Positions 40,107 through 61,392 of a DNA stretch of 64,000 nucleotides are shown piece by piece. Origin of the DNA: a virus (taxonomy: Duplodnaviria; Caudoviricetes); the IMG/VR virus record IMGVR_UViG_3300014039_000012, positions 96,001 to 160,000 of that record; one strand, 5' to 3'. Below the pieces are notes generated by a model. It was given only the letters and a program-made list of their open reading frames with translations, was not told where the DNA came from and made no database searches. The number at the start of each line of letters is the position of its first letter. Position 1 is the stretch's first letter. The position numbers were made by a program, and so were the translations under genes.

Positions 40107-41021
40107 ATGGGAACTATTATTAACGGCAAAGAACTTGCCGAGCGCGAAAACGAACTTACCGCAACAAGAGTTGAAACCCTTGTTAAAAACGGGCACGCGA
40201 GACCGAAGCTTGTTGTGATTCAGGCGGGAAATGATCCGGCTTCTTCGACTTATGTTCGCAACAAGAAAAAAGCTTGCGAGAAAGTCGGTATCTTGTGCGA
40301 AGATATTCATATCGATGAAGAAAAAGATCCTGCTCTTACGGAGATGAGAATTATTGGAGAAATTCAGAAAGCGAACAGAGACGACAATGTCAACGGAATT
40401 CTTGTTCAGCTTCCACTTCCAAAGGGGGTTGATGAGGAAACCGTCCTTAATTATATCAATATGTTCAAGGACGTCGATGGATTCGGATATTTGAACGCAG
40501 GAAAGCTTTTCTCAAAGAAGAATCCCGAGCCTTATGGATTTATTCCTTGCACCCCTGCAGGAATTGTTCATATGTTGAATTCGATTTCTGCTCCTAACGG
40601 AATTAATTATTCTGGAAAGAATGCAGTTGTTATTGGTCGCTCCAATATTGTCGGAAAGCCAGTTTCAATTCTTCTTCAGAAGATGAATATGAATGTAACA
40701 ATGCTTCATTCAAAGACTTCCGAAGAAGATAAACAATTTTACTGCCGTCACGCAGACGTGATTGTCGTAGCGACCGGACAGGAAAATACACTTACAGACA
40801 GACACTTTTATGGAGACAAGAAGCCGATTATTATCGATGTCGGGATTCATCGTGGAGAAGATGGGAAACTCCACGGAGATGTCTCAGAAGAGATTAAGGA
40901 AAAGTATTCGAGTTATTACAGCCCTTGCCCTGGAGGTTGCGGTCCTTTAACTGTCTCGATGCTTTTGAAGAATGTTGTTACTTCGGCGGAAAGAAGTTAC
41001 TTGATTTTTAACAACGATTAA
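40107..41021 (+). CDS. folD: Methylenetetrahydrofolate dehydrogenase/cyclohydrolase
   Basis: DPASSTYVRNK, NGILVQLPLP, KDVDG, PCTPAG, VIGRSNIVGKP, IDVGI, GDV, PGGCGPLT. Confidence 0.95.
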   Translation: MGTIINGKELAERENELTATRVETLVKNGHARPKLVVIQAGNDPASSTYVRNKKKACEKVGILCEDIHIDEEKDPALTEMRIIGEIQKANRDDNVNGILVQLPLPKGVDEETVLNYINMFKDVDGFGYLNAGKLFSKKNPEPYGFIPCTPAGIVHMLNSISAPNGINYSGKNAVVIGRSNIVGKPVSILLQKMNMNVTMLHSKTSEEDKQFYCRHADVIVVATGQENTLTDRHFYGDKKPIIIDVGIHRGEDGKLHGDVSEEIKEKYSSYYSPCPGGCGPLTVSMLLKNVVTSAERSYLIFNND

Positions 41022-44552: not shown

Positions 44553-45114
44553 CTTACCAAAAATACTCAATCATATTCAAATATTGTCTAATTATTACCC
44601 AAATATCCAAGAAATACCCAGAAAACCCTCTATAGACATCTTCTATATATAAATCATCAACAGATCATCATATAATTGTGTGATCTAACTCATATATTCT
44701 TTCTTAATTATGCGATTAGATTAGAAGGCCGTTGGATATGGAATTATATTGGTTCTATAGTCTAGTACTAGTATATGGGCTATTATTAAGAAGAACTTAT
44801 ATTAAAGTTGGTTAGATATCAAGTATTGTTATTCTTTCAAGGATCATATATATTGATCATATATATTTGGGGAACCAAGTTTCCCCACACCCCCTCCTTT
44901 GCCCGAAAAGACTTTCAGTCTTTTCTCCTCGTCCCCTCACTTCGTTCGGGTCGCCGTCCAATCGTTTTTCATTTGTCGAACCTGACGGTTCTCAAATGAA
45001 TAAACCGACTTCGTCGTAGTATATATTTATTTTTTTAAGGGAAAGGAAAGGATGTGTATTTATATTTAAAAGGGAATGTATTTGTAAATATTTTGTTAAT
45101 TATATATAGAGGGA

Positions 45115-45143
45115 TTGACAAGGAGGGGGAAGTGTGGTATAAT
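45115..45143 (+). promoter_or_regulatory. sigmaA promoter
   Basis: TTGACA-17-TATAAT with TG extension. Confidence 0.9.
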
Positions 45144-45185
45144 AGAGGTGAATAGAAGGAAGTAGAAGGAGGAGGGATTTTTATT

Positions 45186-45890
45186 ATGACTAATATTGAG
45201 CGTACTTTTTATAGAGAACTTCACAATCTTGAAGTGGGAGTTATTTATAAAAACTCAAGGGTGGTTTGTGAACTTTTAAAATTTCCATTTGTTAGTGGAA
45301 GTAGTCGAATTGCAGTTATGAAATTATTGGATAAGTATACCCGATATATTAAAGTTGGACAGAAGTATATTTTTTCTGAAATATATTTAGATAAGATTCC
45401 TGTTGAACCGGAGAAAAAAATGATTTTACAAGACGGAGAAATTGTTAAACCGTTCCCTGATTGTGATAGATATCTTGTAAGTAATTATGGGAGAATTTGG
45501 TCAAAACCAAAAGGGGACTGGGCACATCTTGGAAGTAATCCTAATGGATATTTGTATTGTAGTATAAGTGGTAAATATTTATCTGTTCATAGAATAGTAG
45601 CATTGACTTTTATACCAAACCCGTTAGGGTTGGCAGAAGTTAATCATAAAGACGAAAATAAGCATAATAATCGTGTAGATAATTTAGAATGGATTTCAAG
45701 GAGAGATAATCTTTATTATGGAACTAGAATGGATAGAATAAAAGCAGGGAGAAATAAGAGGAGAAATAATCCTAATAGATTTAAAGATAGATTCGAAAAG
45801 ATTGTAAGAGATTGGAAGAATGTCGGTATAAATAGGGAAGAGATGGAGTTAATGATAAAGGAGATTGTTGATGGGATATTTGAAGAGTAG
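45186..45890 (+). CDS. HNH homing endonuclease (NUMOD4-HNH) with an extra N-terminal domain
   Basis: YLVSNYGRI, VHRIVALTFIPNP...EVNHKDENKHNNRVDNLEW. Confidence 0.85.
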   Translation: MTNIERTFYRELHNLEVGVIYKNSRVVCELLKFPFVSGSSRIAVMKLLDKYTRYIKVGQKYIFSEIYLDKIPVEPEKKMILQDGEIVKPFPDCDRYLVSNYGRIWSKPKGDWAHLGSNPNGYLYCSISGKYLSVHRIVALTFIPNPLGLAEVNHKDENKHNNRVDNLEWISRRDNLYYGTRMDRIKAGRNKRRNNPNRFKDRFEKIVRDWKNVGINREEMELMIKEIVDGIFEE

Positions 45891-46150
45891 GATTGGGTGC
45901 GAGATTGATAATGAGAGGATAGATAGGTAAACGATTAAGAGAGATATAGGATAGACGAGATTTTGATATGTTTGATATGATCTTTTCTTTTATAAGAAAA
46001 GTAAAAATAAAGTAAAATGTTAAGAATTCCAGAAAATTCCAAATAAATCACTTTAATTTCAAATAAATTCCAAATTAACTTAAACTAATTCAAACTAATT
46101 TCTAACCGCTCCCTTATAAAAATAATCTTAAATAAATTTTTCAAAACCAC

Positions 46151-46179
46151 TTGACAAATCCGCCCTTTTATGATATAAT
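46151..46179 (+). promoter_or_regulatory. sigmaA promoter
   Basis: TTGACA 46151-46156, 17 bp, TG-A-TATAAT 46174-46179. Confidence 0.85.
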
Positions 46180-46630
46180 TATACTGAATAGGTAGAATAG
46201 AAACTCAAAATATAATTATGAACAAATTATAAATGTATTTTCCCTACTTTCCAGTAGAATAGAAAACCCCTCTATAGGAAAATATGGAAAAAATATTTTT
46301 TAATATTTAAAAACCCTTTTTGCGCGAAGCGCAGAGACGCTGGAGTCATAACATAATTTGTTAACATTTACCTATTTTTTAATCAAAAATTATATATATA
46401 GGAGGATTGTTAATGTTAACAAATTATGAATGAAAAATGCACACTTTTAAAGATTTATTATTATTATTATATTTATATATATACCGTTAAAAAGTGTGCA
46501 ATCGTTAATATTTTGTTCATAATTTAACCGCTCCCCAAACGACGAAATTTCTCACCATAGAATCGTAGATTTCGTGTTAAAAAGTGACAAAACTAAACTA
46601 TAAATATTATAAAAATTAAAGGAGAATTAT

Positions 46631-47890
46631 ATGATAGAAGAAATTGAGAATAAACAACCTCGAATAACAAATAATCTTGAAACATTTAAAAATTTACAAA
46701 TTGGTAAAAAATATAGATACGTAGATTTATGTGAAGTTCTCGAAGAACCGAAATTACGAGGTAAACAAAAAGAGTATCAAATTGCCAGATGGGAGCGGAA
46801 ATGTAATTTAAACAAAATTGCAAATTCTCCATATTATGAAGTTAATGAGATTTATGAAAATGAACTCCATCCAATTGAGACAAGGGGAAAGAAAAACGAA
46901 TATTTAAAATATATTAGAGATATTATAGTTTTATCTTGTTATCAAAAAAGAAACACAAAACAAAAAAATGAAGAAAGTGACTACTATCATTTTGAAGCAT
47001 CAAAAGTAAATTTATATATGTTATTTGGTTTTTTCAATCAAAAGTTTATTGAGTTTTGTTTTAATTCCGAAAATGAAAAAAATAAAAAGATTCTTGAAAA
47101 CATAAAAGATAAAAACGCTATTATCAAACAATTTGAAAGTGAAGTATTTGGAAAATGTTTCGATGTTTTGGATAGTGTTAGAAAGAGATTAAAGAATGAA
47201 CAATTAATTGACTCTCACGACACAGTAGAAGTGTATCAATTATATAGAAATGAAAATACTCATCAATTTTATCCAATAGATACTTGGTATGGAATTTGGA
47301 GATCTTTAACAGAAGAAGAACAGACGTATTTGATGGATGTCAAAAAGAGTATAATGAGGGAAATGGGATGTTCCACCCTTTCCAGTCTATATTATAGAGG
47401 GTGGGGAGAGAAATTTAGAAATAAAGTAACACAGATTATATATAGAGAGCGGGGCTGGAAGCTATATAGAGAGTCTGTAAGTTTTTGGATGGTTAAAAGA
47501 AATGTAATTGAAGAAGCGGAGGAAATACTAAAGAAATGTGGATACGATCCGGATGACGAAGTGGTTCAAGCTAAAGCTTGTGAAATTAATGAAAAAATGA
47601 TTGGATTCTTAAAAAATAGAACGGACATTAATTTATATGCTTTAACTCACGCAGCGGCAACAGAAATTATAGAAAAAAGAGAAGAGACTCCATCAAGAGG
47701 AACATTTTATAAAACATTAGAAATTTTAATGGAACTATATGAATTAATCGATGAGCCAAGAGAAAGACAAGATGTCAAAGATCAATTGATGTTTCAGAGC
47801 TTTGATAACGAGGCTATTATAGATGAATATAAAAATGTAAGAGAAATGTTGATTGGAGAATTAATTAAATTGCCATCAGAACAGTTTTAA
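46631..47890 (+). CDS. Hypothetical protein, candidate DNA-binding/initiator protein
   Basis: 419 aa; N-terminus resembles the N-terminus of 45186..45890; sits next to origin-like DNA. Confidence 0.5.
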   Translation: MIEEIENKQPRITNNLETFKNLQIGKKYRYVDLCEVLEEPKLRGKQKEYQIARWERKCNLNKIANSPYYEVNEIYENELHPIETRGKKNEYLKYIRDIIVLSCYQKRNTKQKNEESDYYHFEASKVNLYMLFGFFNQKFIEFCFNSENEKNKKILENIKDKNAIIKQFESEVFGKCFDVLDSVRKRLKNEQLIDSHDTVEVYQLYRNENTHQFYPIDTWYGIWRSLTEEEQTYLMDVKKSIMREMGCSTLSSLYYRGWGEKFRNKVTQIIYRERGWKLYRESVSFWMVKRNVIEEAEEILKKCGYDPDDEVVQAKACEINEKMIGFLKNRTDINLYALTHAAATEIIEKREETPSRGTFYKTLEILMELYELIDEPRERQDVKDQLMFQSFDNEAIIDEYKNVREMLIGELIKLPSEQF

Positions 47891-47963
47891 CCGCTCCCGT
47901 TTGCCTTCATCTCCCTCCCAAAAAACTTTTTTCAAAAAATCAGAACTTTTTTCTTAAAACCCC

Positions 47964-47992
47964 TTGACAAAACGGATTTTATGTGCTATAAT
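47964..47992 (+). promoter_or_regulatory. sigmaA promoter of the ncRNA/tRNA cluster
   Basis: TTGACA 47964-47969, TATAAT 47987-47992. Predicted +1 near 47999, where a long RNA hairpin starts. Confidence 0.9.
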
Positions 47993-47998
47993 ATAAGC

Positions 47999-48112
47999 GT
48001 GAAAGGGAGAGAGCATCGGCACACGAGTAGGGAGCGGTTCAAAGCCTAAGTGATACCCGACACTAACCGCTCCCGAAGGCTCCATCGGACTCTATTTCAC
48101 TACCTCCTTTCT
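47999..48112 (+). ncRNA. Putative small RNA (long hairpin plus anti-SD tail)
   Basis: GTGAAA/TTTCAC closing stem, internal GGGAGCGGTT/AACCGCTCCC stem, 3' TACCTCCTTTCT. Confidence 0.5.
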
Positions 48113-48115
48113 TAA

Positions 48116-48205
48116 AGAACCGCAGGAACTGCGGGGATAGCCTGTTGATACTTGAAGAGACTTCATTGAGCAGGAAGCTCACTCCTCTGGGGTTGGGCAG
48201 TTCAC
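48116..48205 (+). mobile_element. Orphan IS200/IS605-family right end / TnpB omegaRNA-like scaffold, no tnpA or tnpB
   Basis: ACCGCAGGAACTGCGGGGATAGCCTG (reads RTAGTAGIAC*, like Firmicutes TnpB C-termini), CAGGAAGCTC, subterminal hairpin, ends GCAGTTCAC. Confidence 0.7.
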
Positions 48206-48329
48206 ATGAACTAGTGGTTTTCATAGTAGACTCCTTTCAAATGTGACGCCGGTCTTGGTGGTGCTTGATCGGTATGACAAAGCGGTCGGACGCTTGACAG
48301 CTCGGACAGACGGCACCTTTCTAAAACAT

Positions 48330-48420
48330 CCATCGGCAGCTTAATTGGTTCAAGCCCGCGATCTATAATCGCGAGACCCTCACAAGGCAAGTGGAGGTTC
48401 GACCCCTCCCCGATGGACCA
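48330..48420 (+). tRNA. tRNA-Ile(UAU), atypical (long variable region, C33)
   Basis: Acceptor CCATCGG/CCGATGG plus A-CCA; anticodon stem CGCGA/TCGCG, loop TC-TAT-AA; T-arm GGAGG-TTCGACC-CCTCC. Confidence 0.7.
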
Positions 48421-48453
48421 AGCAATTATTTGAAAGGTAAGTATAAACACAAT

Positions 48454-49005
48454 ATGGATATAATATGGAAAGACATCCCGGGGTATGAAGGGCTCTATCA
48501 AGTGAACCAACGGGGAGAGGTATATAGCTTATATACTGGTAAAATTTTAAAATATAGCTTTTCCACAGATGGGTATAAGCAATATAATCTTTTCAAAGAC
48601 AAGAAAAGACGGCTTATGATGGCTCATAAAGCGGTTGCGCTTGCTTTCATTCCAAATCCAGAAAATCTTCCGATGGTTAATCATAAAGATGAAAATAAAT
48701 CTAATTGCTATTATGAAAACCTTGAATGGTGTAGTTGTTTATATAACAACACATATAATGGGACTCATATTAAAAGGTCTGTTAAAAATTGTCTTACGAC
48801 ATTTCAATATAATGAATGCGGGGAATTAATTAGGATTTACTCTTCTGCAAAAGAGGCCGCAAAAGAAAACGGATTTACAGATAGTTGTATTAGCTCTTGT
48901 TGTACTGGAAATTTGTATACATATAAAAAATATGTATGGTCGCATTCAAAATTATCTAAAGAAGAAATTTTTGAAAAATTTCGTAAATCTAAACAAATTC
49001 AATAA
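48454..49005 (+). CDS. HNH homing endonuclease (NUMOD4-HNH-NUMOD1)
   Basis: WKDIPGYEGLYQV, AHKAVALAFIPNP..LPMVNHKDENKSN...NLEW. Confidence 0.88.
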   Translation: MDIIWKDIPGYEGLYQVNQRGEVYSLYTGKILKYSFSTDGYKQYNLFKDKKRRLMMAHKAVALAFIPNPENLPMVNHKDENKSNCYYENLEWCSCLYNNTYNGTHIKRSVKNCLTTFQYNECGELIRIYSSAKEAAKENGFTDSCISSCCTGNLYTYKKYVWSHSKLSKEEIFEKFRKSKQIQ

Positions 49006-49023
49006 TCAAAGGAGTAATTCCAA

Positions 49024-49200
49024 ATGTTACCAATTATCGTAGCATCAGTCCTGTCTCTCCTCGCAGTCGGATTCATCGTTTGGTTCTGGACACGGACTCC
49101 GAGCAATCTTACCAAGTGGTATTGTATTCCGGTTACAATCTTTGGAGTGGCGGCAGTTATCGCGCTTTGGTTCTTTGCGGTAATTCTTCCAATTCTCTGA
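49024..49200 (+). CDS. 58 aa two-TM membrane protein (below the ORF-track cutoff)
   Basis: AAAGGAG RBS; MLPIIVASVLSLLAVGFIVWFW...IFGVAAVIALWFFAVILPIL. Confidence 0.6.
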   Translation: MLPIIVASVLSLLAVGFIVWFWTRTPSNLTKWYCIPVTIFGVAAVIALWFFAVILPIL

Positions 49201-49235
49201 CCGAGATGACAGTCGGGAAAGACCGACGTCCATAT

Positions 49236-49317
49236 GGACCTGTGGCGAAATTGGCAAACGCATTCGACTTAAGATCGAGTACCTCCGGGTTTAAGAGTTC
49301 AAATCTCTTCAGGTCTA
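49236..49317 (+). tRNA. tRNA-Leu(UAA), CCA not encoded
   Basis: GGACCTG/CAGGTCT acceptor, TTCGA-CTTAAGA-TCGAG, variable arm, AAGAG-TTCAAAT-CTCTT. Confidence 0.85.
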
Positions 49318-49559
49318 CGCTGGATTGTTCTTGAATAGGATTTTATCCGTTAGCTCGCAACTAATGTCCGGCACCAAGACGCTTGATTGGCAGAATTCCT
49401 TAGTCTCTAAATAGTAATGGAAGCGCCCGACTCCCACGGAAGAGCGGAGCTCCCTCACAGAGGAACAGAAATCCGTCGCTGTGTTGTATATGTGACCGAC
49501 GTTGACTGAATCGTCTCGTAAAAATTTCAGTGACAGTCTGGAGAGACAGACATTCATAT

Positions 49560-49635
49560 GGATGCGTAGCCCAGAGGAAGAGGCAAACGGCTCAAACCCG
49601 TTGTAGGGAATGTTCGAATCATTTCGCATCCACCA
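49560..49635 (+). tRNA. tRNA with CAA anticodon (Leu) and short variable loop
   Basis: GGATGCG/CGCATCC plus A-CCA; AACGG-CTCAAAC-CCGTT; 5 nt variable loop; GAATG-TTCGAAT-CATTT. Confidence 0.8.
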
Positions 49636-50428
49636 GCCGCCAATGATGGAGATGCGTATAACTCACGCCATTCAGACTAAGTCAAGCTGGGCGCGTTAAA
49701 ACTGTTTAATCCGTGCCTTGGATAATTCTTCCAGTCGGTTCTTACATCAGATAATTTCGCCAAAGCAACCGATTCTTCTATCCCCTTCAGATGGCGTGCA
49801 GTCCCGTTCGAGTCGGGCGAGGGGAATCAGGTCTGCTCCCAGACAGTACACAGGGAGCGAGAGTAAGCCCTCGTCAAGGCGAAGTTTATGGGTTAGCTTG
49901 AAACCCTGCCGCAAGCGTGATGAAGGAGTCTAACATCCAATAGCGCGTTGGTATCATTGGTTCGAATCCAATCGTTGCGGTTCTTCGGGCAAGAGAAGTA
50001 AAACCTTGCCAAGAGGCGAAGCGGAACGCCGAAAACACCAACCGAAAAACTGTCTTGTTCGATCGCCTTTCCGATGAAGCATTAGATGAATGATGCTTGC
50101 GGTGAAACGGGTTAAACTCCCGGCTTCGGGCTGGCTTAATCGGCAAGATAAACCGCTCCCTCGACGCGGGATGTTCCCCGTCAAAATATGTGAAATTCAT
50201 AGCTTAGCCCGTTATAGTCGGAAAGTATTCATAGGTATTCCTCCGCCTATCGCACCCCAGAAATGGACACGCGGAAAAGAGAGGAAAATCGCCGACCCAC
50301 CAAGCGTGGGAACGGTTCCTGTAGCCGTCTAATTGCGGTTACTGCTGATAGCAGTCTGATCAACTGCTAAAATTCGGTGCCACCGATGAGGGGTTAAATG
50401 GACGCGATAGCCGTTACAGCCGAAACAT
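49636..50428 (+). ncRNA. About 800 nt GC-rich structured non-coding tract with tRNA-like folds
   Basis: No RBS-supported ORF; many hairpins; T-arm-like loops near 49803-49817, 49956-49972 and 50108-50122. Confidence 0.45.
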
Positions 50429-50504
50429 TGTCGAGTAACCAAGTGGTAAGGTAACTGGTTTTGACCCAGTCATTGCGCAGGTTCGAATCCTGCCTCGACA
50501 GCCA
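50429..50504 (+). tRNA. tRNA-Gln(UUG)
   Basis: TGTCGAG/CTCGACA plus G-CCA; ACTGG-TTTTGAC-CCAGT; GCAGG-TTCGAAT-CCTGC. Confidence 0.92.
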
Positions 50505-50628
50505 GCGGATGCTATTCCGCTAAACCTCCAATAATTTATATGGGCACCCGCCTCTATTAGGTCCGATAATTGAGTCGGAAACCGATGAGACGGGTTGTTC
50601 CGCATCTAAAGAAAGGAAACCGCTCCCA

Positions 50629-51108
50629 ATGAGCATCACTCTCAACGTCAACGTAAACCTTCCAATATATAACAAGACTCCAACCTATAAACCGCTCCCG
50701 CAATTAACTCGTCGTCAGCGGTCATTTTTCGAGTCTGCTAAAGCAGTATCTATTCTCTCTGATCATCCACAGTTTCATTTAGGTTGTGTTATCGTAGAAG
50801 GTTCTCGTATCATCTCATCAGGATGTAATTCAATCACACGATGCTCTCCTATTCAGCAGAAGCTCGACCACAATCGGTTCGGCGGAGAACATAGAGGAGT
50901 GTGTCACGCAGAAACATCTGCCTTGCTTCCGCTCATTCGTCAGAGACTGGATTTAACCTCTTGTACCGCGTATCTGTACCGCTCCCATAAAGATGGCTCT
51001 CTTGCCATTTCTCGCCCTTGTAGCGGCTGTATGAGCCTCCTGCGAGCCGCTGGCATTCGGCGAGTCTTCTTCACGGTTGAAGGCGGATATGCGGTAGAAG
51101 ACATTTAG
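50629..51108 (+). CDS. Zn-dependent cytidine/dCMP deaminase-family protein
   Basis: HLGCVIV...GCN, HAE, SRPCSGC. Confidence 0.8.
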   Translation: MSITLNVNVNLPIYNKTPTYKPLPQLTRRQRSFFESAKAVSILSDHPQFHLGCVIVEGSRIISSGCNSITRCSPIQQKLDHNRFGGEHRGVCHAETSALLPLIRQRLDLTSCTAYLYRSHKDGSLAISRPCSGCMSLLRAAGIRRVFFTVEGGYAVEDI

Positions 51109-51206
51109 GGAGCGGTTCATATCATCAGGTGATTAGACAACCTACCCAAAACAGGTTATCTTCACATATATTAACAAATTATTAACAAGAAAGGGGGGGA
51201 CTTAAT

Positions 51207-51797
51207 ATGCCTCGTAAAAATAAAAGTATATCTTTCGATGAAATGATTAATGAAATACCTTTTGAAGAAAAATGGTCATATATTTCTGGAACAAACGATT
51301 CTTATATTATAGTTTCAAATGGGGATGTTTATTCTAGTATTACAAATATGGGAAAAACAAATCGTTGGCATAGATTAGAACACAGATTATCTCGATATGG
51401 TTATCATCGCGTAACTATAAAGATAAATAACAAAAGAATAGATCGATATATTCATAGGTTAGTTTTAGAAACCTTTTGTCCAATTGAAAATATGGAAAAT
51501 TATGATTGTGCCCATCTTGACGATAATAAAGATAACAATAGTTTAAATAATTTAAGATGGATGACTCGTTTTGAGAATAATCATTGGAATGACAAAATTG
51601 AAAGAGGCGCATCAAAAAGAAGAATTCCCGTTTTTCAATATGATTTAGACGGAAACTATATAGCGTCTTTTGAAGGATTGAGAAGAGCAGAGGACGCAAC
51701 TGGATTCGATCATTCAAAAATATCTAATTGCGCAAAAGGGAAAAGAAAAGAATATAAAGGGTTTATTTGGTCTTTTATAGGACCTGATAATAAATAA
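51207..51797 (+). CDS. HNH homing endonuclease with NUMOD1
   Basis: IHRLVLETF...CAHLDDNKDNNSLNNLRW; PVFQYDLDG...W. Confidence 0.85.
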   Translation: MPRKNKSISFDEMINEIPFEEKWSYISGTNDSYIIVSNGDVYSSITNMGKTNRWHRLEHRLSRYGYHRVTIKINNKRIDRYIHRLVLETFCPIENMENYDCAHLDDNKDNNSLNNLRWMTRFENNHWNDKIERGASKRRIPVFQYDLDGNYIASFEGLRRAEDATGFDHSKISNCAKGKRKEYKGFIWSFIGPDNK

Positions 51798-51819
51798 AAT
51801 ATTTTATGGAGATGAATTT

Positions 51820-52665
51820 ATGAAAGAAATTGAAAGAACCCCGTTGAGCAGCAAGGCATTAATTGAAATGAAAGACTGTTTCCTAAAATGTCTTAAAGCA
51901 GAGTATATTCACGTTGATAATGACGGCGATTATGCTTTTGAAGAATCGAGAGATGGAAAAACGTTGTATCTTTTGTTCCAATGGACCAGAACAGCATATG
52001 ACTGGATTAGTAATTTTGATTTTGTTGCTAAACCGTACAAAGATATGGAAATTACTTGGAGATGTCACAGAGGATTTTTAAGAGTTTGGAAATCGATTGA
52101 GCCGCACATTAAAGAATTGGTAAAAAATGAAAAGTACAAAGCTATTAAAATTGCGGGATTTTCACACGGCGCTGCTATCGCAACACTTGCTCACGAGTAT
52201 GTTTGGTTCAACCGTCCCGACCTCCGCAGTGAAGAGAATCCCGAAGGAATCACAGGTTATGGATTCGGTTGTCCGAGATGTTATTTCGGTTCTCTCCTCC
52301 CGTGGAAGAAGATGCCGCAGGAGCTCGCACAGCGTTGGGAGCGGTTCTACCCCATCCGCAATATCTCCGACCTCGTAACACACGTCCCACCCCGCATTTT
52401 CGGGTTCAGACACGTTGCTCCAGTCGTTCAGTTGGGCAAGACTGGCAAGTGGCAGATTATCGATTATGCTCCCAACCTTCCTCCAAGAGTAGCAATGCAC
52501 TACGCCCCAAATTATATTCTCTCTCTTGATGATGGAATTAAGGAAGCGCAGGAACTCGAAGCCTACCAGAAGGCAGTCGAGAAGGCAAACGCCCGTGCCG
52601 CAAAGAAAGCTGCTGCCACCAAAGCAAAGGCTGAAACGGGGAGCGGTTCAAAGGAGGAGAAGTGA
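51820..52665 (+). CDS. Lipase class 3-like alpha/beta hydrolase
   Basis: DWISNF, HRGF, nucleophile elbow GFSHGAA, FGCPR, N..DLVTHVP, C-terminal His. Confidence 0.8.
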   Translation: MKEIERTPLSSKALIEMKDCFLKCLKAEYIHVDNDGDYAFEESRDGKTLYLLFQWTRTAYDWISNFDFVAKPYKDMEITWRCHRGFLRVWKSIEPHIKELVKNEKYKAIKIAGFSHGAAIATLAHEYVWFNRPDLRSEENPEGITGYGFGCPRCYFGSLLPWKKMPQELAQRWERFYPIRNISDLVTHVPPRIFGFRHVAPVVQLGKTGKWQIIDYAPNLPPRVAMHYAPNYILSLDDGIKEAQELEAYQKAVEKANARAAKKAAATKAKAETGSGSKEEK

Positions 52666-53132
52666 TGGCAGAGGTAATTAATAATAAGAATAATTCTAAT
52701 TCTAACACAACTTCTACCCTTTCCGCAATTCTTGCCGCCCCCATTGATTTCTTCTACTCTCACATTGAAGAAATGTCTCTTTTCGGAGTAACTTCCGACG
52801 AGTCCGAGACAATCATTATTACCCGCAGAGAATCTCCTGAAGCAACAATCACGACCTCCGATTCCACAATGTTCACAAAGATTCGAAAGAATATTATCGC
52901 AGATCCGGAACATAAGGACTGGAAGGTTCAAGCCGTTACTCGTGCAAGTTCCGACAATAACCAATTTCATTTCATCGAGATTCAAGTGGCCTGCCCCAAG
53001 AAGCTAATTTCTCTCCGCTCCAAAACAACCACGAAGGAGCTGACAGACGAGCAGAAAGAAGCAATGCGGGAGCGGATGTCCAAGATGTGGAAGAATAGAG
53101 GAAATTCCGCAGAAACAGAAGACGAGGATTAA
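52662..53132 (+). CDS. Hypothetical protein
   Basis: ETII...PKKLISLR...ELTDEQKEAMRERM. Confidence 0.6.
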   Translation: MMAEVINNKNNSNSNTTSTLSAILAAPIDFFYSHIEEMSLFGVTSDESETIIITRRESPEATITTSDSTMFTKIRKNIIADPEHKDWKVQAVTRASSDNNQFHFIEIQVACPKKLISLRSKTTTKELTDEQKEAMRERMSKMWKNRGNSAETEDED

Positions 53133-53494
53133 GTTCCTAATCTATTGTTCGGGAGCGGTTCTATTGTTCCGCACATTGTTCCGATAAAGGTTCTTCAACG
53201 GTCTATAAACCGCTCCCACGTGCGGCAGAAAAATAATGCCGCTCCCCGTTAAAAGACACCCCTGATTTTCTAATAAAACAATAAGCCAGAAAATAAAGTT
53301 TCAAAGGGCTATCGGTACTCGCCGAAAACCAACTTTAAAAATTTCGTCCTATTTTAATCGAGAGAGTCGGGGTAAAATCGGCACTCAAACTATATTGGTG
53401 CCGAAGCACTGAAATAGCAACTAAAATTAAGCCCAAATAAGGGCAAAAATAAAACTAAAAACAATTCTAAATTCCAATAAGGAGATGCTTTTAA

Positions 53495-54241
53495 ATGAAA
53501 TATTACAGCGATATTACCAACGAACTTTATGAAACCCGCGAACAGCTTTTCAAGGCAGAGCGCGATTACAAAACCGAACTTCTCGAAAAGGCTCGCGCGG
53601 ACGAGAAAGCGAAGAAGATTGCGGATCTCGAAGCACAGCTCGCAGAACTTCGCGGAGAGACGACCACAAAGAAGGCTGATGCCAAACCCTCCGACTCTTC
53701 CGATGTTTATACGGGAGCGGTTAAAGAAGATAGCCCCGAAAAAGACAGCCCCGCTCCCACGAAGGTTTATGATGCGGGAAGAGAAGGTAAGATTGATTAT
53801 TCCAAGACCGTCGAAGAGATCAAGAAGCTAATCAACAATTTCAAGTTTAAGTATCCGAGTTTTGAGTTTCAGGATGTTGAAGACGAAGATGAAAAGGACG
53901 AACTGACGGCCGACGATATTAAGGAAGATACAATGTCCTCCGCTCCCAAGATGAATATTAAAGCCGTTCCTCGTCCCGGAGCAAAAACTACTCGCCCCGC
54001 TACAGAAAAGACCGCTCCCGCAAAGACAAATAGCTCGTGCGGTGGTTGTGGTAAGAAGTGCGTTAAGAACTCCGACACTGATGGAGACAAGGTGCGGAGC
54101 AAACTCGCAGATTCTGGATATTATTCCTCCGCATATGTTAACCTGAACGGTAAGGAGTTTTACTCCGAGGGAGCGGATTCGTGGAATGACGTTAAGAAGG
54201 CTGTTCGGGAATATTTTGATAAGCTTCAGGGACTGAAGTGA
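53495..54241 (+). CDS. Hypothetical low-complexity protein
   Basis: AAGGAG RBS; MKYYSD N-terminus, coiled coil, disordered middle. Confidence 0.65.
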   Translation: MKYYSDITNELYETREQLFKAERDYKTELLEKARADEKAKKIADLEAQLAELRGETTTKKADAKPSDSSDVYTGAVKEDSPEKDSPAPTKVYDAGREGKIDYSKTVEEIKKLINNFKFKYPSFEFQDVEDEDEKDELTADDIKEDTMSSAPKMNIKAVPRPGAKTTRPATEKTAPAKTNSSCGGCGKKCVKNSDTDGDKVRSKLADSGYYSSAYVNLNGKEFYSEGADSWNDVKKAVREYFDKLQGLK

Positions 54242-54282
54242 GGATGGACTGATTAAGTAAGTTTACAAATAATTTACAATTT

Positions 54283-54312
54283 AGGAGTGGTCTGGAGACT
54301 GCTCCTTTTTTT
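54283..54312 (+). terminator. Intrinsic terminator ending the + strand arm
   Basis: AGGAGTGGTC-TGGA-GACTGCTCCT plus T run. Confidence 0.85.
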
Positions 54313-54701
54313 GTTGGGCAAGTAATTTTTGGACGAAGTTCTAATAAAATAGGCGGCTGCTCAACCATTTTAAAGGGGCGGTTCTATGGGTTAGGGGCGG
54401 GTGGGGTTAAAAGCGGGGCGGCCGCCGGAAAGAAAAAAATTCCCCGCCTAATTAAAAAAGTGGCTCGGGAATATAATTAGCCCTCGCGTATGGTTTGTTT
54501 TAGTGTCCGATTAAAGACACAAGGAAGCCTTGGGGTTCGCTCCCTTTAAACTATTCTATACCCATCCCATCCACCCACAGTCATAACTCAACAGTCTACC
54601 AAACCCATTACAACACAAGAACTCTTCGAAACACAAATCCCGTTGAAGCACGGTTTTCTTTACTTGCGGATAACCGTAAACCCAATTGTTCTTACCTCAT
54701 T

Positions 54702-54767
54702 TTATCGATGAAGTTCGATAAAAGCAAGGACGAGACACAGAAGCACAACAATACCAAAAGCGCTCAT
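54702..54767 (-). CDS. 21 aa membrane peptide MSAFGIVVLLCLVLAFIELHR
   Basis: GAAAGGAGGTGA RBS; paralog at 58871..58939. Confidence 0.6.
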   Translation of the reverse strand: MSAFGIVVLLCLVLAFIELHR

Positions 54768-54781
54768 TTCATCACCTCCTT

Positions 54782-54946
54782 TCAATTGAAGATATACTCG
54801 ACGCACCCCGGGTCCAGCTTAATACCCAGCCAAATCGAGAAGATGAACAAAAGAATTACAATAATGACGACAAATATTCCTCCGCTATCTTTCATCTCTT
54901 TCATAGATCCTTTCGACAATAGCCACAGAACCAACAATGTTATCAA
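54782..54946 (-). CDS. 54 aa membrane peptide
   Basis: GAAAGGAGGTGA RBS, TTG start, two hydrophobic segments. Confidence 0.45.
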   Translation of the reverse strand: MITLLVLWLLSKGSMKEMKDSGGIFVVIIVILLFIFSIWLGIKLDPGCVEYIFN

Positions 54947-55144
54947 GCTTTCATCACCTCCTTTCTACTTCGAAAAGTAGAACATCAGAAAGAAATAAAC
55001 AGCTAATATAACCCAAGTTGCAATAGCTTCAATCTTGTTGCACATTTCTTTAGAGTCTTTCCAGCATCGTCGGATTACCAGTCCGAGAATCAGTAAAAGT
55101 ATCACATAATTGTCCTCCTTTTATTTATTAACAAATGATGAACA

Positions 55145-55543
55145 TTATTCATCATCAGTTTCCTCGTCATCCTCCTCGCTCCAACTGTCAATTTCTTCCT
55201 GAATCTTGTCGTTCTCAAAAGACTTTTCGCAATCAACGACTTCTCTTGCAATGTCTCCGGGGTAAATCCAATCAGTCGGGTCGTTGGTCGATTCGAAGTT
55301 GCCGTAGCCGTTGAAATGGAAATAGTCGTGATTCGGATTGAAATCTCCATAAACGATGCTACGAGCAATTTCGCTCGGGGTCATTCCTTCGCAGATCTCG
55401 TCGAATCTCTCCATTTCAATGATTTCGTCATCGTAGTCATTCGTCTCGTAGCAATATTCGTTGTGGAGTGCTACTGCATCCGAATCGTCCATATCCTCGA
55501 TAATGTCGCGAATTGCTTCAACCTTTTCTTTGTAAGTTTTCAT
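55145..55543 (-). CDS. Acidic hypothetical early protein
   Basis: AAAGGAG RBS; GDFNPNHDYF.FNGYGN motif. Confidence 0.7.
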   Translation of the reverse strand: MKTYKEKVEAIRDIIEDMDDSDAVALHNEYCYETNDYDDEIIEMERFDEICEGMTPSEIARSIVYGDFNPNHDYFHFNGYGNFESTNDPTDWIYPGDIAREVVDCEKSFENDKIQEEIDSWSEEDDEETDDE

Positions 55544-55623
55544 AGTTTTGTTCTCCTTTCCGTTTTCAATATTTTTTTGTTTATTTTGGTTAGTTGGTTT
55601 GTTTTGTTAATTGGCTGGTTAAA

Positions 55624-56007
55624 TTATTTAATGCTGTCTTTGTGAATTGCATAGGTCCAATAAGCGATGTTGACATCCTTATCGATATACCGGCCATAAA
55701 GAAAGAAAGCCCGATAAATCGCATAGTCGTCTTGGTCCTTGTAAAGTTCGACGGAAACACACAATCCGCGATATTTGTCTTTTTCTCCAATCCTTGGAAG
55801 ATCCGAAAGCGAATCAACAACCTTCGCGTTCCCGACCCATTCGCGAATTTCCTCAAGTGTTCCGTTTTTGTCGGTGCAGTTACGAATATAATTTTCAAAA
55901 GAATAATTATATTCATCTGGTTGCTCTCTCTGAAGGTGCTTGAATGTTCTCAGAAGTTCCTCCTCTGTGACAATGATGTCAAACTCTAAATCTCTAAACT
56001 TTCTCAT
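55624..56007 (-). CDS. Hypothetical early protein
   Basis: AGGAGG RBS. Confidence 0.6.
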   Translation of the reverse strand: MRKFRDLEFDIIVTEEELLRTFKHLQREQPDEYNYSFENYIRNCTDKNGTLEEIREWVGNAKVVDSLSDLPRIGEKDKYRGLCVSVELYKDQDDYAIYRAFFLYGRYIDKDVNIAYWTYAIHKDSIK

Positions 56008-56008
56008 T

Positions 56009-56257
56009 TTAGATTTCCTCCTTTAAAATATTTTTTGCCTCTTCAATTGCCAAAAGGCACTCTTTATTTCTTCTGGCATAATTCAAATGCCAAACCACAA
56101 TAATGTCATTGTGCTCACTCAAGATAACCGTGGCAGCAACCTCACCTTCTTCGTTTTCGTCATCTGTTTTCCAAACATCAATTGTAATACCTGCTTTGAT
56201 TCCATTTTTTAATTCCTCAAAGCAATAGTCGTTTCTCACTTCTGCAAACATTTTCAT
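56009..56257 (-). CDS. Hypothetical early protein
   Basis: GAAAGGA RBS with structured leader. Confidence 0.65.
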   Translation of the reverse strand: MKMFAEVRNDYCFEELKNGIKAGITIDVWKTDDENEEGEVAATVILSEHNDIIVVWHLNYARRNKECLLAIEEAKNILKEEI

Positions 56258-56315
56258 AATTCTTTCCTTTCTCCCCGCTTATGGTCAGATAGGACAACCA
56301 ATTGTTAATTTTTTG

Positions 56316-56639
56316 TTAATGATTGAAATATAATTTTTGTTCAATTCTTTGCATCGGATAAATCCGATTTTCATCAAACGGATAAACAATTTCATTGACG
56401 TTATCGTCTTCGTCTACGATTGTCAAGCAATCATAACTTTCAACTTCAACGAGAACTGCTGTCTCTTCTGCGAAGAACCACCAATTATTATCAATAATAT
56501 TGATAATCTTTTCGGCTTTCTCGCTGCTGTCGAGCTTTTCAGCGATGTATTGTTGAAGTTCATTGCGTTTATTATCGAAATCCGTCCAGTTGTCAGGCAC
56601 TTTGATGATTTCTGTTTTTAATTGTTCTCTGTACGTCAT
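56316..56639 (-). CDS. Hypothetical early protein
   Basis: AAGGAG RBS overlaps the HNH stop; ATG at 56639. Confidence 0.6.
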   Translation of the reverse strand: MTYREQLKTEIIKVPDNWTDFDNKRNELQQYIAEKLDSSEKAEKIINIIDNNWWFFAEETAVLVEVESYDCLTIVDEDDNVNEIVYPFDENRIYPMQRIEQKLYFNH

Positions 56640-56644
56640 GATAT

Positions 56645-57178
56645 TTACTCCTTCGGTTTTGCAATTACCCATGTTTTATTATGTAAAATTGATTGTATAG
56701 TTGTTGCTCCAACTCCATATTTTCTTGCCAATGCTCTTCCACCAAAGATTGGATCTCTTGGAATGTATGTTTCCAATATATCATTCACATCTTGTCTTGT
56801 TAATTTGTGGCTACCATTTTTTTCCCCATAACTTATACCATTGGGAAGTTTCAAACCTGTATCAAACGCATGCTTAATGTTTTGAGACTTCGTTACCCAT
56901 TCAAGATTTTCAACAAAATTATTTTCCTTATTTCCATCTTTGTGGTTAATTTCAGGAAATCCATTCGGATTTTCAATAAAAGCCATCGCAACAAGTCTAT
57001 GAACCTTAAAATTTTTCATTGTTCCATTTTTACAAAGTTTAACATTCATATATCCATATCTGTCTTTATCAAGATGTAGTATTTTCTCGTTTTTACTTTT
57101 CAGTGATTTAATTTGTCCAAAATTTGATACCTGATATTCTTCATATCCACCTTCTATTTGTTTCCATATTTCTTCCAT
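56645..57178 (-). CDS. HNH homing endonuclease (NUMOD4-HNH)
   Basis: EIWKQI.G.E.YQVSNFG, KVHRLVAMAFIENP...EINHKDGNKENN.VENLEW. Confidence 0.9.
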   Translation of the reverse strand: MEEIWKQIEGGYEEYQVSNFGQIKSLKSKNEKILHLDKDRYGYMNVKLCKNGTMKNFKVHRLVAMAFIENPNGFPEINHKDGNKENNFVENLEWVTKSQNIKHAFDTGLKLPNGISYGEKNGSHKLTRQDVNDILETYIPRDPIFGGRALARKYGVGATTIQSILHNKTWVIAKPKE

Positions 57179-57236
57179 GTAGTTCTCCTTTAATTTATTG
57201 CCGGTAGGACAGCATAATTGTTAAAATTTTGTTAAT

Positions 57237-57380
57237 TCAGAACGGCAATGTGTCGCGACTCAAATGCAGATCAAGCCAGTCATAGGTCTTCGGAAAGTGG
57301 TCCATCATCCAAGCCCAGAAATGCCTTCTTCTTCTGCGTTCTCTCCGAGTCTCAATTGCACTTCGCTTTTGCTTCTTCAT
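57237..57380 (-). CDS. 47 aa Arg-rich small protein
   Basis: AAAGGAGG RBS; MKKQKRSAIETRRERRRRRHFWAW... Confidence 0.5.
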   Translation of the reverse strand: MKKQKRSAIETRRERRRRRHFWAWMMDHFPKTYDWLDLHLSRDTLPF

Positions 57381-57763
57381 ACTTTTCCCTCCTTTCTCAA
57401 TTCGCTAAAATTCTTCATCGTCGTATATTTCCAACCGTCGCAGTCGGTCATATACCAAATGATAACTGGGTTGTTATCCTTGTCGAGTGCCACTCCCTTG
57501 AACTGTAAATCCAAGTCGTCATTACTCCTTGCGTCAACGTTGGTGTTCCAGATTGCAGCATATTCTCCGCTCGAAGTGTAAGGAAGTCCGTAGGTCAGTT
57601 CGACGTTCCTCTCACGCTTTCCGTGAACAATCCGCAGACTTTTGTCGAGCCATTTCACTGCCGCAAGGGCAATCTTGTACTGTCTTTCGTAGTCGGTCCA
57701 TTCTTTTACTTCATTCGGGTAAAGCTCCATCGATGTCGTTTGGGTGTTCTTAATGTTTTCCAT
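57377..57763 (-). CDS. Hypothetical early protein
   Basis: GAAAGGA RBS with pseudoknot leader. Confidence 0.65.
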   Translation of the reverse strand: MENIKNTQTTSMELYPNEVKEWTDYERQYKIALAAVKWLDKSLRIVHGKRERNVELTYGLPYTSSGEYAAIWNTNVDARSNDDLDLQFKGVALDKDNNPVIIWYMTDCDGWKYTTMKNFSELRKEGKV

Positions 57764-57863
57764 ATCAGAAATCCTTTCTCCGGTTTTATCGAGGTTCTCC
57801 GGAAACTCAATATTTTAATTTTATATAATCAGGATAAAATCCTGTAATTTTCGAGTATTTATT

Positions 57864-58796
57864 TTAGTACGGATAACTTTTAAATGCTTCGTCTTTGTCG
57901 TGTTGTATATCGTTACTTAAATCTCTAAATCGTGTATATTTCTTGTTCGGGTTTATTTTGAAAAACGAAAGCAAATCGCTATAATACCATTCCGACATCG
58001 ACTCGGAACAATAATGTTCAAGGACTTCTTTTTCATCAATTGGTTCTTCGCAATGTTCTTGAACAATCTTCAACATATTATCTTCTTCGGTCTTTTGTTT
58101 TTCTCTTGAACGTTTTGATCTTTCTTCTTCTTTAGCCTGTTCTACTTCGTGCTTCCAATATTCGTATTTTTCTCTGTCGTCAATAATAGAGGAGATTTGT
58201 TCTTTAGACAATCCTGTGATCTTTTGAATCTCCGGATATTTTGTTCTTTTTCGATATAGTTGAACGACCTTGATCTTTATCTCTGCGGTAGCAGGGGGAG
58301 AAACCGCGCCAGCGGTCTGGGAAGGTTCGTCAGAACCACCCCTCTCGATCTCTGTCTCCTTCTCCTTCTCTCTATCTTTATCTATATCTTTTTCTTTATC
58401 TATATCATGGTTTTGACCCTTTTGACCCATTTTATTATATCGTTTTAAAGCGCATCGAATTGAGTCTTCTGTCAACCCCATTTTAGAAGCGATATCTTTA
58501 ATCGAATCTCCATTTTCTTTCAGGCGATAAATCTCATCATAATCCAATTCTTTTGGTCGTCCGCCCTTCTTTCCAGCTTCAACCGCTTTTCGATATTTCT
58601 CTTGTGCGGATTGAACATTCGGAAGACAACTGCCTTTTATCCAGCCAAGAATTAAGTCATTTTCTGTTTTGATTTCTCCTCGAATCGATAAATATACTAA
58701 CGCATAAATCGCTTCTTTAGCGAAATCAGTTCCCATCATTTTCTCAAACGCATCAATTGTTTCGAGCCAGCTCTCGTAAAATACCATATTTGCCAT
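57864..58796 (-). CDS. DUF6291-like N-terminus plus HTH protein (replisome-organiser-like)
   Basis: FYESW...Y......GKKGGRP, (DKE)n linker, two HTH-like segments. Confidence 0.55.
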   Translation of the reverse strand: MANMVFYESWLETIDAFEKMMGTDFAKEAIYALVYLSIRGEIKTENDLILGWIKGSCLPNVQSAQEKYRKAVEAGKKGGRPKELDYDEIYRLKENGDSIKDIASKMGLTEDSIRCALKRYNKMGQKGQNHDIDKEKDIDKDREKEKETEIERGGSDEPSQTAGAVSPPATAEIKIKVVQLYRKRTKYPEIQKITGLSKEQISSIIDDREKYEYWKHEVEQAKEEERSKRSREKQKTEEDNMLKIVQEHCEEPIDEKEVLEHYCSESMSEWYYSDLLSFFKINPNKKYTRFRDLSNDIQHDKDEAFKSYPY

Positions 58797-58870
58797 ACTT
58801 TAATCTCCTTTTAAAATGAATTTTTCTTTTAATTAATTTTAATATTTTGTTCATAATTGAACTCCTTTGA

Positions 58871-58939
58871 TTAGAATCTGTGAATTTCTATAAAAGCCAG
58901 AACTAATATCAATAATACCAAGATGCCAAAAGGTGACAT
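58871..58939 (-). CDS. 22 aa membrane peptide MSPFGILVLLILVLAFIEIHRF
   Basis: GGAGGT RBS; paralog of 54702..54767. Confidence 0.6.
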   Translation of the reverse strand: MSPFGILVLLILVLAFIEIHRF

Positions 58940-58973
58940 ATATTTTACCTCCAATCTTCTAAAATATCTATAT

Positions 58974-59004
58974 AAAAAGGAGACTGGATTTCTCCAGCCT
59001 CCTT
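58974..59004 (-). terminator. Intrinsic terminator (- strand)
   Basis: AAGGAGGCTGGA-GAAA-TCCAGTCTCCTTTTT. Confidence 0.8.
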
Positions 59005-59035
59005 GAATTTTAATAATTTGTTAATAATTTAATTG

Positions 59036-59410
59036 TCAGAGCTCGACCTTTTTTCCTCTACCGCAAATTCTTGCAAACGGGCAATAGAAAGACAGATAGC
59101 TATTCAAGTGTCTCCCAACCTGTTTGTTATCCCAGAGCACAAACATATATTCGAGGGCATTTGCAACAGACCAGAAATCACATCCGTCTTTAATTGCATA
59201 GATTCCGGATTTAAGAAGTTGTTTTAAAAACTCTTTCTCATAATGCGTTGCGGGCGCGACAAAGTCACTTTCATTTTCGGGGCGAACCCAAACTTCATCA
59301 GAAAACATATTCGCAAGTTTATTAACAATTTCTTGATCGATAGAGCTTTCTTCGTTTGCGTAGGTTTCGAAGAGATACTTCTGTTCTGCGGTTTTGTAAG
59401 TAGTAAGCAT
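59036..59410 (-). CDS. Hypothetical early protein
   Basis: RBS plus pseudoknot leader. Confidence 0.65.
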   Translation of the reverse strand: MLTTYKTAEQKYLFETYANEESSIDQEIVNKLANMFSDEVWVRPENESDFVAPATHYEKEFLKQLLKSGIYAIKDGCDFWSVANALEYMFVLWDNKQVGRHLNSYLSFYCPFARICGRGKKVEL

Positions 59411-59487
59411 AGTTTTAATCCTTTCTGCCGTTTTGTAAGAGGTTTGCGGTGACTCTAATTTTTAAATTTTAATAATTTGTTAATAAT

Positions 59488-59883: not shown

Positions 59884-59920
59884 AGTATTTCTCCCTTTTA
59901 ATAATTTGTTAATATTTTAA

Positions 59921-60181: not shown

Positions 60182-60211
60182 AGCTTTATTCTCCTTTTTT
60201 AATTGTTTTGT

Positions 60212-60460: not shown

Positions 60461-60513
60461 AATATTTTTCCTTTCTGGCCGTATATGTCCGATACCGCAG
60501 ACAAATTTTTAAT

Positions 60514-60822: not shown

Positions 60823-60877
60823 AGCATTTCCCTTCTCTCCGTATAACGCCGTTAGGTCAGCGTAATTTAATTATTGA

Positions 60878-61330: not shown

Positions 61331-61392
61331 AATATTTCCTTTCTTTTGCGATGGTATTATGCCGCCACCGCACGGCAAATTGATTTTGTTAA

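Follow-up and report, generated by a model that had tools for sequence, protein, structure and literature searches.

A single exact 8-mer, CCGCTCCC, forms an array at the end of the long rightward gene block of a large phage genome, and this array is clearly a DNA-level signal under selection, by position and by density, that is written over coding sequence. The window analyzed here is the 64,000-nucleotide stretch G000:96001–160000 of a 169,441-bp virus record (IMG/VR IMGVR_UViG_3300014039_000012; G000 denotes the phage genome under study, and positions without a prefix are those of the window). Within the window, CCGCTCCC occurs 23 times, against 0.51 copies expected per 64 kb from shuffled sequence (shuffle maximum, 3); 22 of these copies lie at 46106–54176 and the remaining one at 27854, with a further copy at genome position 168626 bringing the whole record to 24. 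Our recount thus agrees with an earlier note, made from the letters of the window alone, that had described 22 clustered copies and one elsewhere and had judged far fewer to be expected by chance. No 8-mer in the G000 genome is more tightly clustered: copies reach 2.7 per kb in a zone that amounts to ~5% of the genome. The fuller form of the word is (A/T)AACCGCTCCC, and all 14 genomic copies of AACCGCTCCC fall inside the zone. Since only one of the single-mismatch variants of the 10-mer found in the zone alters the 8-mer core, the core of the word is strict. The unit is 8 to 11 nt long and irregularly spaced, at 20 to 2000 bp over 8 kb; the word is not part of any repeat unit exceeding ~14 nt, and no second element was found at a fixed spacing from it.

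Copies occur in both orientations (13 plus, 9 minus, interleaved) and without regard to the kind of DNA in which they reside. Eleven are situated within five open reading frames (ORFs), in line with the earlier count of four or more unrelated ones, and these show no strand preference (5 plus, 6 minus); the others occupy leaders, the DNA between tRNA genes, positions after or over stop codons, and the gap between a ribosome-binding site (RBS) and its ATG. The individual placements that had been named before all hold, including that of copies 48030 and 48067, which form a 10-bp inverted pair in a promoter-driven noncoding stretch. Besides two HNH endonuclease genes, the zone contains ORF 46631–47890 and ORF 53495–54241, genes for a class-3 lipase, a dCMP deaminase, and a phrog_1709 protein, and four tRNA genes. 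The array and its copies are as follows.

46106–54176, both strands: array of 22 exact copies of CCGCTCCC/GGGAGCGG
46106–46113, plus: intergenic copy, 38 bp ahead of the −35 of perfect promoter 46151
46528–46535, plus: copy in an AT-rich leader, 95 nt ahead of ATG 46631; retained in G001 and G002
46791–46798, minus: copy within ORF 46631–47890 (TGG GAG CGG, W-E-R)
47891–47898, plus: copy immediately 3′ of the TAA of ORF 46631–47890, 66 bp upstream of the −35 of promoter 47964
48030–48037, minus: copy, left arm of the inverted pair, noncoding, downstream of promoter 47964; retained in 4/4 relatives
48067–48074, plus: copy, right arm of the inverted pair; retained in 4/4 relatives
50153–50160, plus: copy in noncoding DNA between tRNA genes
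50620–50627, plus: copy between the RBS and the ATG (50629) of the dCMP deaminase
50692–50699, plus: copy within the dCMP deaminase (CCG CTC CCG)
50979–50986, plus: copy within the dCMP deaminase (TAC CGC TCC CAT)
51108–51115, minus: copy over the TAG stop of the dCMP deaminase; retained in 4/4 relatives
52337–52344, minus: copy within the lipase (TGG GAG CGG); the G006 homologue has TGG GAA AAT
52639–52646, minus: copy at the 3′ end of the lipase, just upstream of the RBS of the following gene
53068–53075, minus: copy within the phrog_1709 gene (CGG GAG CGG)
53151–53158, minus: copy, intergenic
53210–53217, plus: copy, intergenic
53239–53246, plus: copy, intergenic
53713–53720, minus: copy within ORF 53495–54241
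53751–53758, plus: copy within ORF 53495–54241 (CCC GCT CCC)
53940–53947, plus: copy within ORF 53495–54241
54012–54019, plus: copy within ORF 53495–54241; retained in 4/4 relatives
54169–54176, minus: last exact copy, within ORF 53495–54241; retained in 4/4 relatives

Selection on the DNA itself follows from three lines of evidence: retention at orthologous sites, the spelling of in-gene copies by rare codons, and the presence of an analogous clustered word in related phages. Six relatives retain CCGCTCCC in the syntenic zone (G001 to G004, G020, and G021). In G001 to G004, IMG/VR relatives whose zone DNA is 70 to 90% identical to that of G000, the syntenic zone holds 20/22, 19/21, 23/26, and 24/26 of their own total copies, respectively. 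At alignable sites, the 8-mer is kept exactly in 14/18, 13/18, 13/13, and 11/13 cases (72 to 100%), against a background in the same alignments of 24 to 32% for all 8-mers and 27 to 40% for GC-rich ones. Word sites are also both gained and lost among relatives, so that copy number is maintained as well as position. The in-gene copies are spelled with codons that the genome otherwise uses sparingly (CGG, 5.5% of Arg codons; GGG, 11%; CTC, 11%; CCC, 13%), and their synonymous-codon sets have probabilities of 0.001 to 0.018 under the genome's own usage. Arrays can be shorter, with 9 copies in 3 kb in G020 and 7 copies in 3.4 kb in G021; across the family, they comprise 7 to 24 exact copies at ~1 to 4 per kb over the final 3 to 8 kb of the rightward block. 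The earlier proposal of a DNA-level array laid over coding sequence is therefore borne out, and its author had looked to related phages for an analogous clustered motif: one is present, as CCGCTCCC or CCGCCGCCC, and its distribution is non-uniform.

Beyond these genomes, a megablast of the zone against GenBank phages returned no match, and a literature search for the 8-mer yielded nothing but primers and unrelated matches. The inverted pair GGGAGCGGTT...AACCGCTCCC was matched 26 times in IMG/VR, with arrays in known relatives only; the other matches were single hairpins in unrelated GC-rich phages. Two further origins of such a pattern were considered and rejected: a shufflon or invertible segment, as the window is collinear with four relatives in every block of homology, and a mobile short repeat (of the kind of miniature inverted-repeat transposable elements or repetitive extragenic palindromes), which would require a common unit beyond the ~14 nt observed and is at odds with most copies being at orthologous positions.

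In at least 15 relatives at a greater distance, another word (TTATCCGCCGCCC) occupies the corresponding position: the 3′ end of the long plus-strand block, up against a conserved noncoding element at the convergence of the two gene blocks. In G006, eight copies of CCGCCGCCC (extended form, TTATCCGCCGCCCG) are found at 65483–69760 and one more at 74867; they run in both orientations through AT-rich DNA and, as in G000, occupy the end of the block before the convergence, in G006 its last ~4.5 kb. Whole-record counts of CCGCCGCCC amount to 6 to 13 copies in 2 to 5 kb in G007, G008, G010 to G013, G030, and G031 (controls, 0 to 2) and to 3 to 7 copies in G009 and G022 to G026. Nine relatives found through the lipase have CCGCTCCC at chance numbers only. 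The two words are similar (TAWCCGC[CG/T]CCC), and the convergence spacer of G000 retains three degenerate GGGGCGG copies. The genes beneath the words are unrelated between clades: no zone protein of G000 has a homologue in the G006 zone, which instead contains a different first ORF and a HEARO RNA with IscB. The G006 homologues of the lipase and the deaminase are located outside its zone and are without the word (at the lipase site, TGG GAA AAT versus TGG GAG CGG in the CCGCTCCC clade). As both genes carry the word only when in the zone, the requirement is tied to the place and not to the genes. At the convergence points of G027 and G028, two relatives that are more distant still, no word forms an array.

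That place is defined by the architecture of the genome. In the full gene maps built for G000 and G006, the plus-strand block ends at the main strand convergence, and its last kilobases contain the array. The leftward block of G000 spans 150.3 to 8.8 kb across the record ends, and the rightward block 9.4 to 150.2 kb; TerL and the portal gene are just right of the divergence point, and the early leftward block, from the divergence point to the array, makes up 11 to 17% of the genome. Perfect host-type promoters recur every few kilobases in the rightward block and are rare in the leftward one. The final copy of the word (54169) lies 114 bp ahead of the terminator that closes the plus-strand block, and the features around the convergence, together with those at the left edge of the zone, are the following.

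54283–54306, plus: intrinsic terminator closing the plus-strand block
54375–54421, minus: three GGGGCGG sites, degenerate forms of the word, within the convergence spacer (the first reads GGGGCGGTTC)
54360–54545: conserved noncoding element at the convergence, with TCAACCATTTT..., ATAATNAGCCCTCGCGTAT at 54473–54491, and TTGGGGTTCG at 54530–54539
46631–47890, plus: gene with a winged-helix-like N-terminal domain (residues 20 to 78), a candidate local binder, not a universal one
45115, 46151, and 47964: perfect extended sigma-70 promoters

The convergence element (ATAATNAGCCCTCGCGTAT ... TTGGGGTTCG) is conserved between clades whose shared proteins are only ~30 to 70% identical, the CCGCTCCC-clade relatives keeping it in a diverged form. 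A scan of IMG/VR for this element recovered seven contigs, each with CCGCCGCCC beside the element, in up to ~10 copies where the fetched stretch covers the zone; in eight contigs of the CCGCCGCCC clade, the array directly adjoins the element. Its core is ATAATNAGCCCTCGCGTAT, which in the CCGCTCCC clade is followed by a small hairpin that shows a compensatory change in one relative (GTGTC/GACAC to GTGCC/GGCAC). Taken as RNA, the element shows no fold common to the clades, whichever strand is used, and its TATAAT lacks a good −35.

The leftward block encodes ThyX, a dNMP kinase, an NlaIII-like restriction-modification pair, and, early in the block, a 551-amino-acid (aa) protein (G000:5967–7622, minus strand) that matches Pfam PF05183, the two-barrel RNA polymerase family of QDE-1-type RNA-dependent RNA polymerases. 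This protein is 94 to 95% identical in G019 to G021, 72% in G006, and 52 to 59% in G022 to G028, and it is probably a non-virion phage RNA polymerase.

Our tentative reading is a two-way barrier, or array of terminators, by which the converging transcription domains are insulated from one another; its reader would be a phage factor specific to the lineage, possibly the two-barrel RNA polymerase that the phage itself encodes. We regard this as possible rather than probable. Each copy would be a sequence-specific stop, read directly by the phage RNA polymerase or through a bound phage roadblock protein, and many weak stops in series, in both orientations, would keep run-off transcription of either block from entering the other in antisense. 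The array would also protect the host-type promoters within the zone. Because host RNA polymerase would not respond to the word, the zone genes could still be expressed from their sigma-70 promoters, and the reader would co-evolve with the phage lineage, giving CCGCTCCC in one clade and CCGCCGCCC in others. We put this reading first because many exact copies in series suggest a reader moving along DNA (or a protein occupying a domain), because the use of two orientations at the meeting point of leftward and rightward traffic suggests that each direction counts, and because copies just upstream of strong promoters and just after genes fit read-through shields. In both clades, several copies indeed precede the −35 of a perfect sigma-70 promoter by 38 to 66 bp or directly follow a stop codon, and they have no helical phasing relative to the promoter (distances of approximately −77, −105, −93, and −105 from the inferred start sites). 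There is in addition a weak polarity, with the outermost copies being plus at the left edge and minus beside the conserved element in both clades; the outermost copies thus tend, weakly, to present the same sense to incoming polymerases.

Known systems offer partial parallels for such a barrier. The class II termination signal of T7 is ATCTGTT, and the Sal-box/TTF-I sites of mouse ribosomal DNA comprise T1 to T10 plus the promoter-proximal T0. The mouse array is likewise a repeated asymmetric site downstream of a unit, with copies upstream of promoters, and acts as a barrier to transcription and replication, but it is eukaryotic, has a known binder, and consists of tandem noncoding sites in a single orientation. 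In phage P23-45, polymerases of this type use their own promoters, and seven terminators share a 26-nt motif (PMC10770324); the sequence-defined terminators of its virion polymerase, near the left genome end, serve as a precedent for the barrier (PMC10770324). Terminator or pause signals of phage polymerases are, as here, short, sequence-defined, polymerase-specific, and present in several copies near a domain boundary; they differ in having one orientation and seven or fewer copies, and for the present word termination is a proposal.

Several observations weigh against a barrier. Termination at the word is something we purely infer, and neither a U-tract nor any other common flank was found after the word. 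Orientation is mixed inside the array, and the polarity trend comes from only two to three independent lineages. An array 8 kb deep seems to exceed the apparent need of a simple stop. The polymerase is present in G027 and G028 (52% identity), which have no array, and none of three accessory candidates for a DNA-binding reader (ORF 46631, the first ORF of the G006 zone, and a helix-turn-helix protein at 57864–58796) co-occurs with the array.

The main rival of the barrier, unlikely in our estimate, is an entry-control array like the injection stop signal (iss) of T5, which would bind a virion, early, or host protein and either halt DNA transfer or later grip the DNA for transfer of the rest. 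Assuming that packaging begins near TerL and proceeds rightward, the leftward early block would be the last DNA packaged and the first injected, with the array next to enter. The position of TerL and the portal at the divergence point, with the early block reaching from there to the array, suits this model, and the T5 iss is similarly a conserved, cis-acting repeat zone of several kilobases, with poorly conserved ORFs and an HNH interruption, at the end of the first-transferred 8% of the genome (10.1101/866236). Judging by gene-block geometry, the array, too, would lie at the boundary of an early genome segment. The start and direction of packaging are, however, part of the model: the terminal repeats of six relatives flagged as having direct terminal repeats (DTRs) are assembly overlaps of 30 to 185 nt or a collagen-like tandem repeat, so that the flags are uninformative on physical ends. 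The T5 iss also has features of its own, being compact and noncoding, with long nested repeats and host DnaA boxes, in the terminal repeat, and its mechanism is unproven. Here, one exact 8- to 9-mer in a lineage-specific dialect is placed mostly over genes, across 3 to 8 kb, and the zone has no cluster of DnaA boxes. In place and logic, the T5 iss is the nearest element known to us, although different in make-up.

A binder encoded in the zone itself is the basis of another reading, in which the copies are operator or iteron sites of a DNA-binding protein (ORF 46631–47890, with nonhomologous substitutes elsewhere) that would autoregulate, coat or silence the zone, or start replication; we consider it improbable. 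The earlier note had called ORF 46631–47890 an orphan and a candidate binder. The first description does not stand, as 193 homologues were found, and the second survives in part: the N-terminal domain is predicted to fold well into a winged-helix-like structure (predicted local distance difference test score [pLDDT] of ~89 over residues 21 to 70), but G004 and G021 retain the array, with 24 and 7 copies of the word, and do not have the family, and the protein was rejected as a universal binder on these grounds. The matches of the N-terminal fold are nearly all winged-helix domains, including those of the replication initiators RepE and Pi, but are weak (Z of 3.2 to 4.5), and the full-length predicted fold is poor (pLDDT, 52.7), with uninformative matches. 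At the corresponding position, G004 has unrelated ORFs without a Pfam match. Copies upstream of, inside, and right after ORF 46631, and likewise around the first ORF of the G006 zone, are what an autoregulator would call for, and the AT-rich palindromic leader at 46200–46620 is also in its favor; that first G006-zone ORF is, however, absent from G009 and G022 to G026, which have CCGCCGCCC copies. Iteron origins with Rep/Pi winged-helix initiators share with the array asymmetric sites in both orientations near a winged-helix gene, but iterons are 17 to 22 bp long and contiguous or phased within a few hundred base pairs. As an iteron origin, the array was rejected for its short units, its dispersed and irregular spacing, and the nonuniversal winged-helix gene.

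A chromosome-handling array, which would tie the segment to a phage or host scaffold for packaging, partition, or terminus organization in the manner of ram, matS, or parS, is also improbable. The confinement of the word to one domain, a density held regardless of gene content, and the conserved position beside the conserved noncoding element all accord with such a role. But dimeric partition or organizer proteins have palindromic sites, and sites of the parS, matS, or ram type were rejected because CCGCTCCC and CCGCCGCCC are both asymmetric; moreover, no ParB-, MatP-, or RacA-like gene turned up in ~60 proteins scanned. The terminase or pac recognition that had been suggested earlier is unlikely: pac and cos sites are at or beside the packaging cut, usually near terminase genes, whereas here TerL (G000:13848–15722) is ~33 kb from the array.

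The word also resembles, in style, the Chi sites of RecBCD/AddAB and the FtsK-orienting polar sequences (KOPS) and SpoIIIE recognition sequences (SRS), which are exact asymmetric 5- to 8-mers written through genes by codon choice and read by translocating machines. Chi of Bacillus subtilis is AGCGG, which the word contains. Recombination or anti-exonuclease hotspots of the Chi kind, read by host AddAB/RecBCD, are nonetheless very unlikely. Chi, KOPS, and SRS are genome-wide, strand-polarized, and host-specified, whereas the word here is of mixed orientation, is confined to 5% of the genome, and is unenriched in candidate hosts. The nearest homologues of the phage's formate-tetrahydrofolate ligase (FTHFS) are in Oscillospirales metagenome-assembled genomes (MAGs; 73 to 74% identity), which hints at a host in this order; in five such MAGs, chosen via the phage FTHFS and so representing a host that is itself only inferred, GGGAGCGG versus its reversed control occurs 49 versus 126, 7 versus 61, 97 versus 90, 19 versus 46, and 14 versus 20 times. 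In addition, the sister word CCGCCGCCC is without AGCGG, the 6-mer CCGCTC is common outside the zone (43/69 copies), and the zone is far from the inferred genome ends. A literature search for Chi predictions in Clostridia returned nothing usable. Chi was thus rejected for lack of enrichment in the candidate hosts and for unpolarized orientation in G000 and its relatives, and a KOPS/SRS-type orienting word for lack of a clean switch point, the pattern of runs in G000 not being kept in G001 and G003.

Least likely of all, and hardly to be expected, is that the copies are promoters of the phage-encoded RNA polymerase. The phage probably has a two-barrel polymerase of its own, the change of word resembles promoter-polymerase co-evolution, and the non-virion polymerase of P23-45 uses a GC-rich promoter motif (PMC10770324). 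Nine of the 22 copies are, however, antisense, and many are at gene 3′ ends or deep in ORFs with nothing downstream (11 are within ORFs), for which the candidate was rejected. Nor does any copy stand upstream of the early genes without host-type promoters; those carry an AT-rich word, ATTAACAAA(A/T)T, seven times on the minus strand at 55603–61385. This could be a phage-specific promoter, given its placement, and is not retained upstream of the early genes of G006.

Returning to the two-way barrier, we can extend it into a doubtful but more general proposal: the lineage-specific exact word would be a previously undescribed form of genome punctuation, imposed by codon choice on any gene that comes to reside in a fixed domain and read by the phage's own two-barrel polymerase (virion-tethered or free), or by a partner of it, as a two-way stop or an entry-control zone, with word and reader co-evolving and the change from CCGCCGCCC to CCGCTCCC representing one switch. 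To our knowledge, no described phage element brings together an exact 8- to 9-mer, a coding overlay, confinement to a single domain, and dialects that differ by lineage. Selection for a density of one exact word can act on a set region of a phage chromosome instead of on any given gene, and the word can change between lineages while the place stays. A sequence reader is thereby suggested for large phages of the human gut, a widespread group with an RNA polymerase of its own (by the PF05183 match), and finding this reader would give a handle on transcription separation, DNA entry, or genome organization, all of which are opaque in uncultured phages.

The zone and its surroundings have further features. 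An Rfam search of 45000–55500 identified nothing beyond the four tRNAs. Free-standing HNH (NUMOD) endonuclease genes are present near the convergence at 45186–45890 (just upstream of the zone), 48391–49005 and 51207–51797 (within it), and 56645–57178; because the closest relatives have none of the first three at these positions, the surroundings of the convergence are an insertion hot spot. The promoter-driven noncoding stretch at 47995–48330 (~330 nt) precedes a 91-nt tRNA-Ile, belongs to no Rfam family, is 82 to 92% identical in relatives (above the adjacent genes), and has the same position as the HEARO RNA in G006. The leader at 46200–46620, between promoter 46151 and ORF 46631, is a very AT-rich, palindromic 440 nt with nested inverted repeats, including a 13- to 14-bp stem around an A/T-rich loop (46438–46501). 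In G006, the region 67090–68719 holds the HEARO/omega RNA (Rfam, 122 bits) followed by an IscB gene (RRXRR plus HNH) with an in-frame TAG, and a tRNA with anticodon CUA is located at 2260–2334; together, these hint at TAG recoding.

Elsewhere in the window, 3 to 41 kb is rich in replication and one-carbon genes, including DnaB, RecD2, FTHFS, FolD, and a DNA polymerase III alpha that is split into two ORFs (9570–13583), the first of which contains an intein. The FTHFS is full length (27928–29595; 913 bits) and, with FolD (40107–41021), the dCMP deaminase, and ThyX, constitutes a one-carbon/thymidylate module. GGTCC-rich words (GGTCCGAC and ACTGGTCC) cluster at G000:74300–81000 and at the ends of G003, in a tandem-repetitive region that resembles a collagen-like gene, and it is this repeat that yields the false 185-nt "terminal repeat" of G003. 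Finally, the restriction-modification-like pair of the early block (G000:162983–164424, minus strand) consists of IceA, an NlaIII-like endonuclease, adjoining an N6/N4 DNA methylase.

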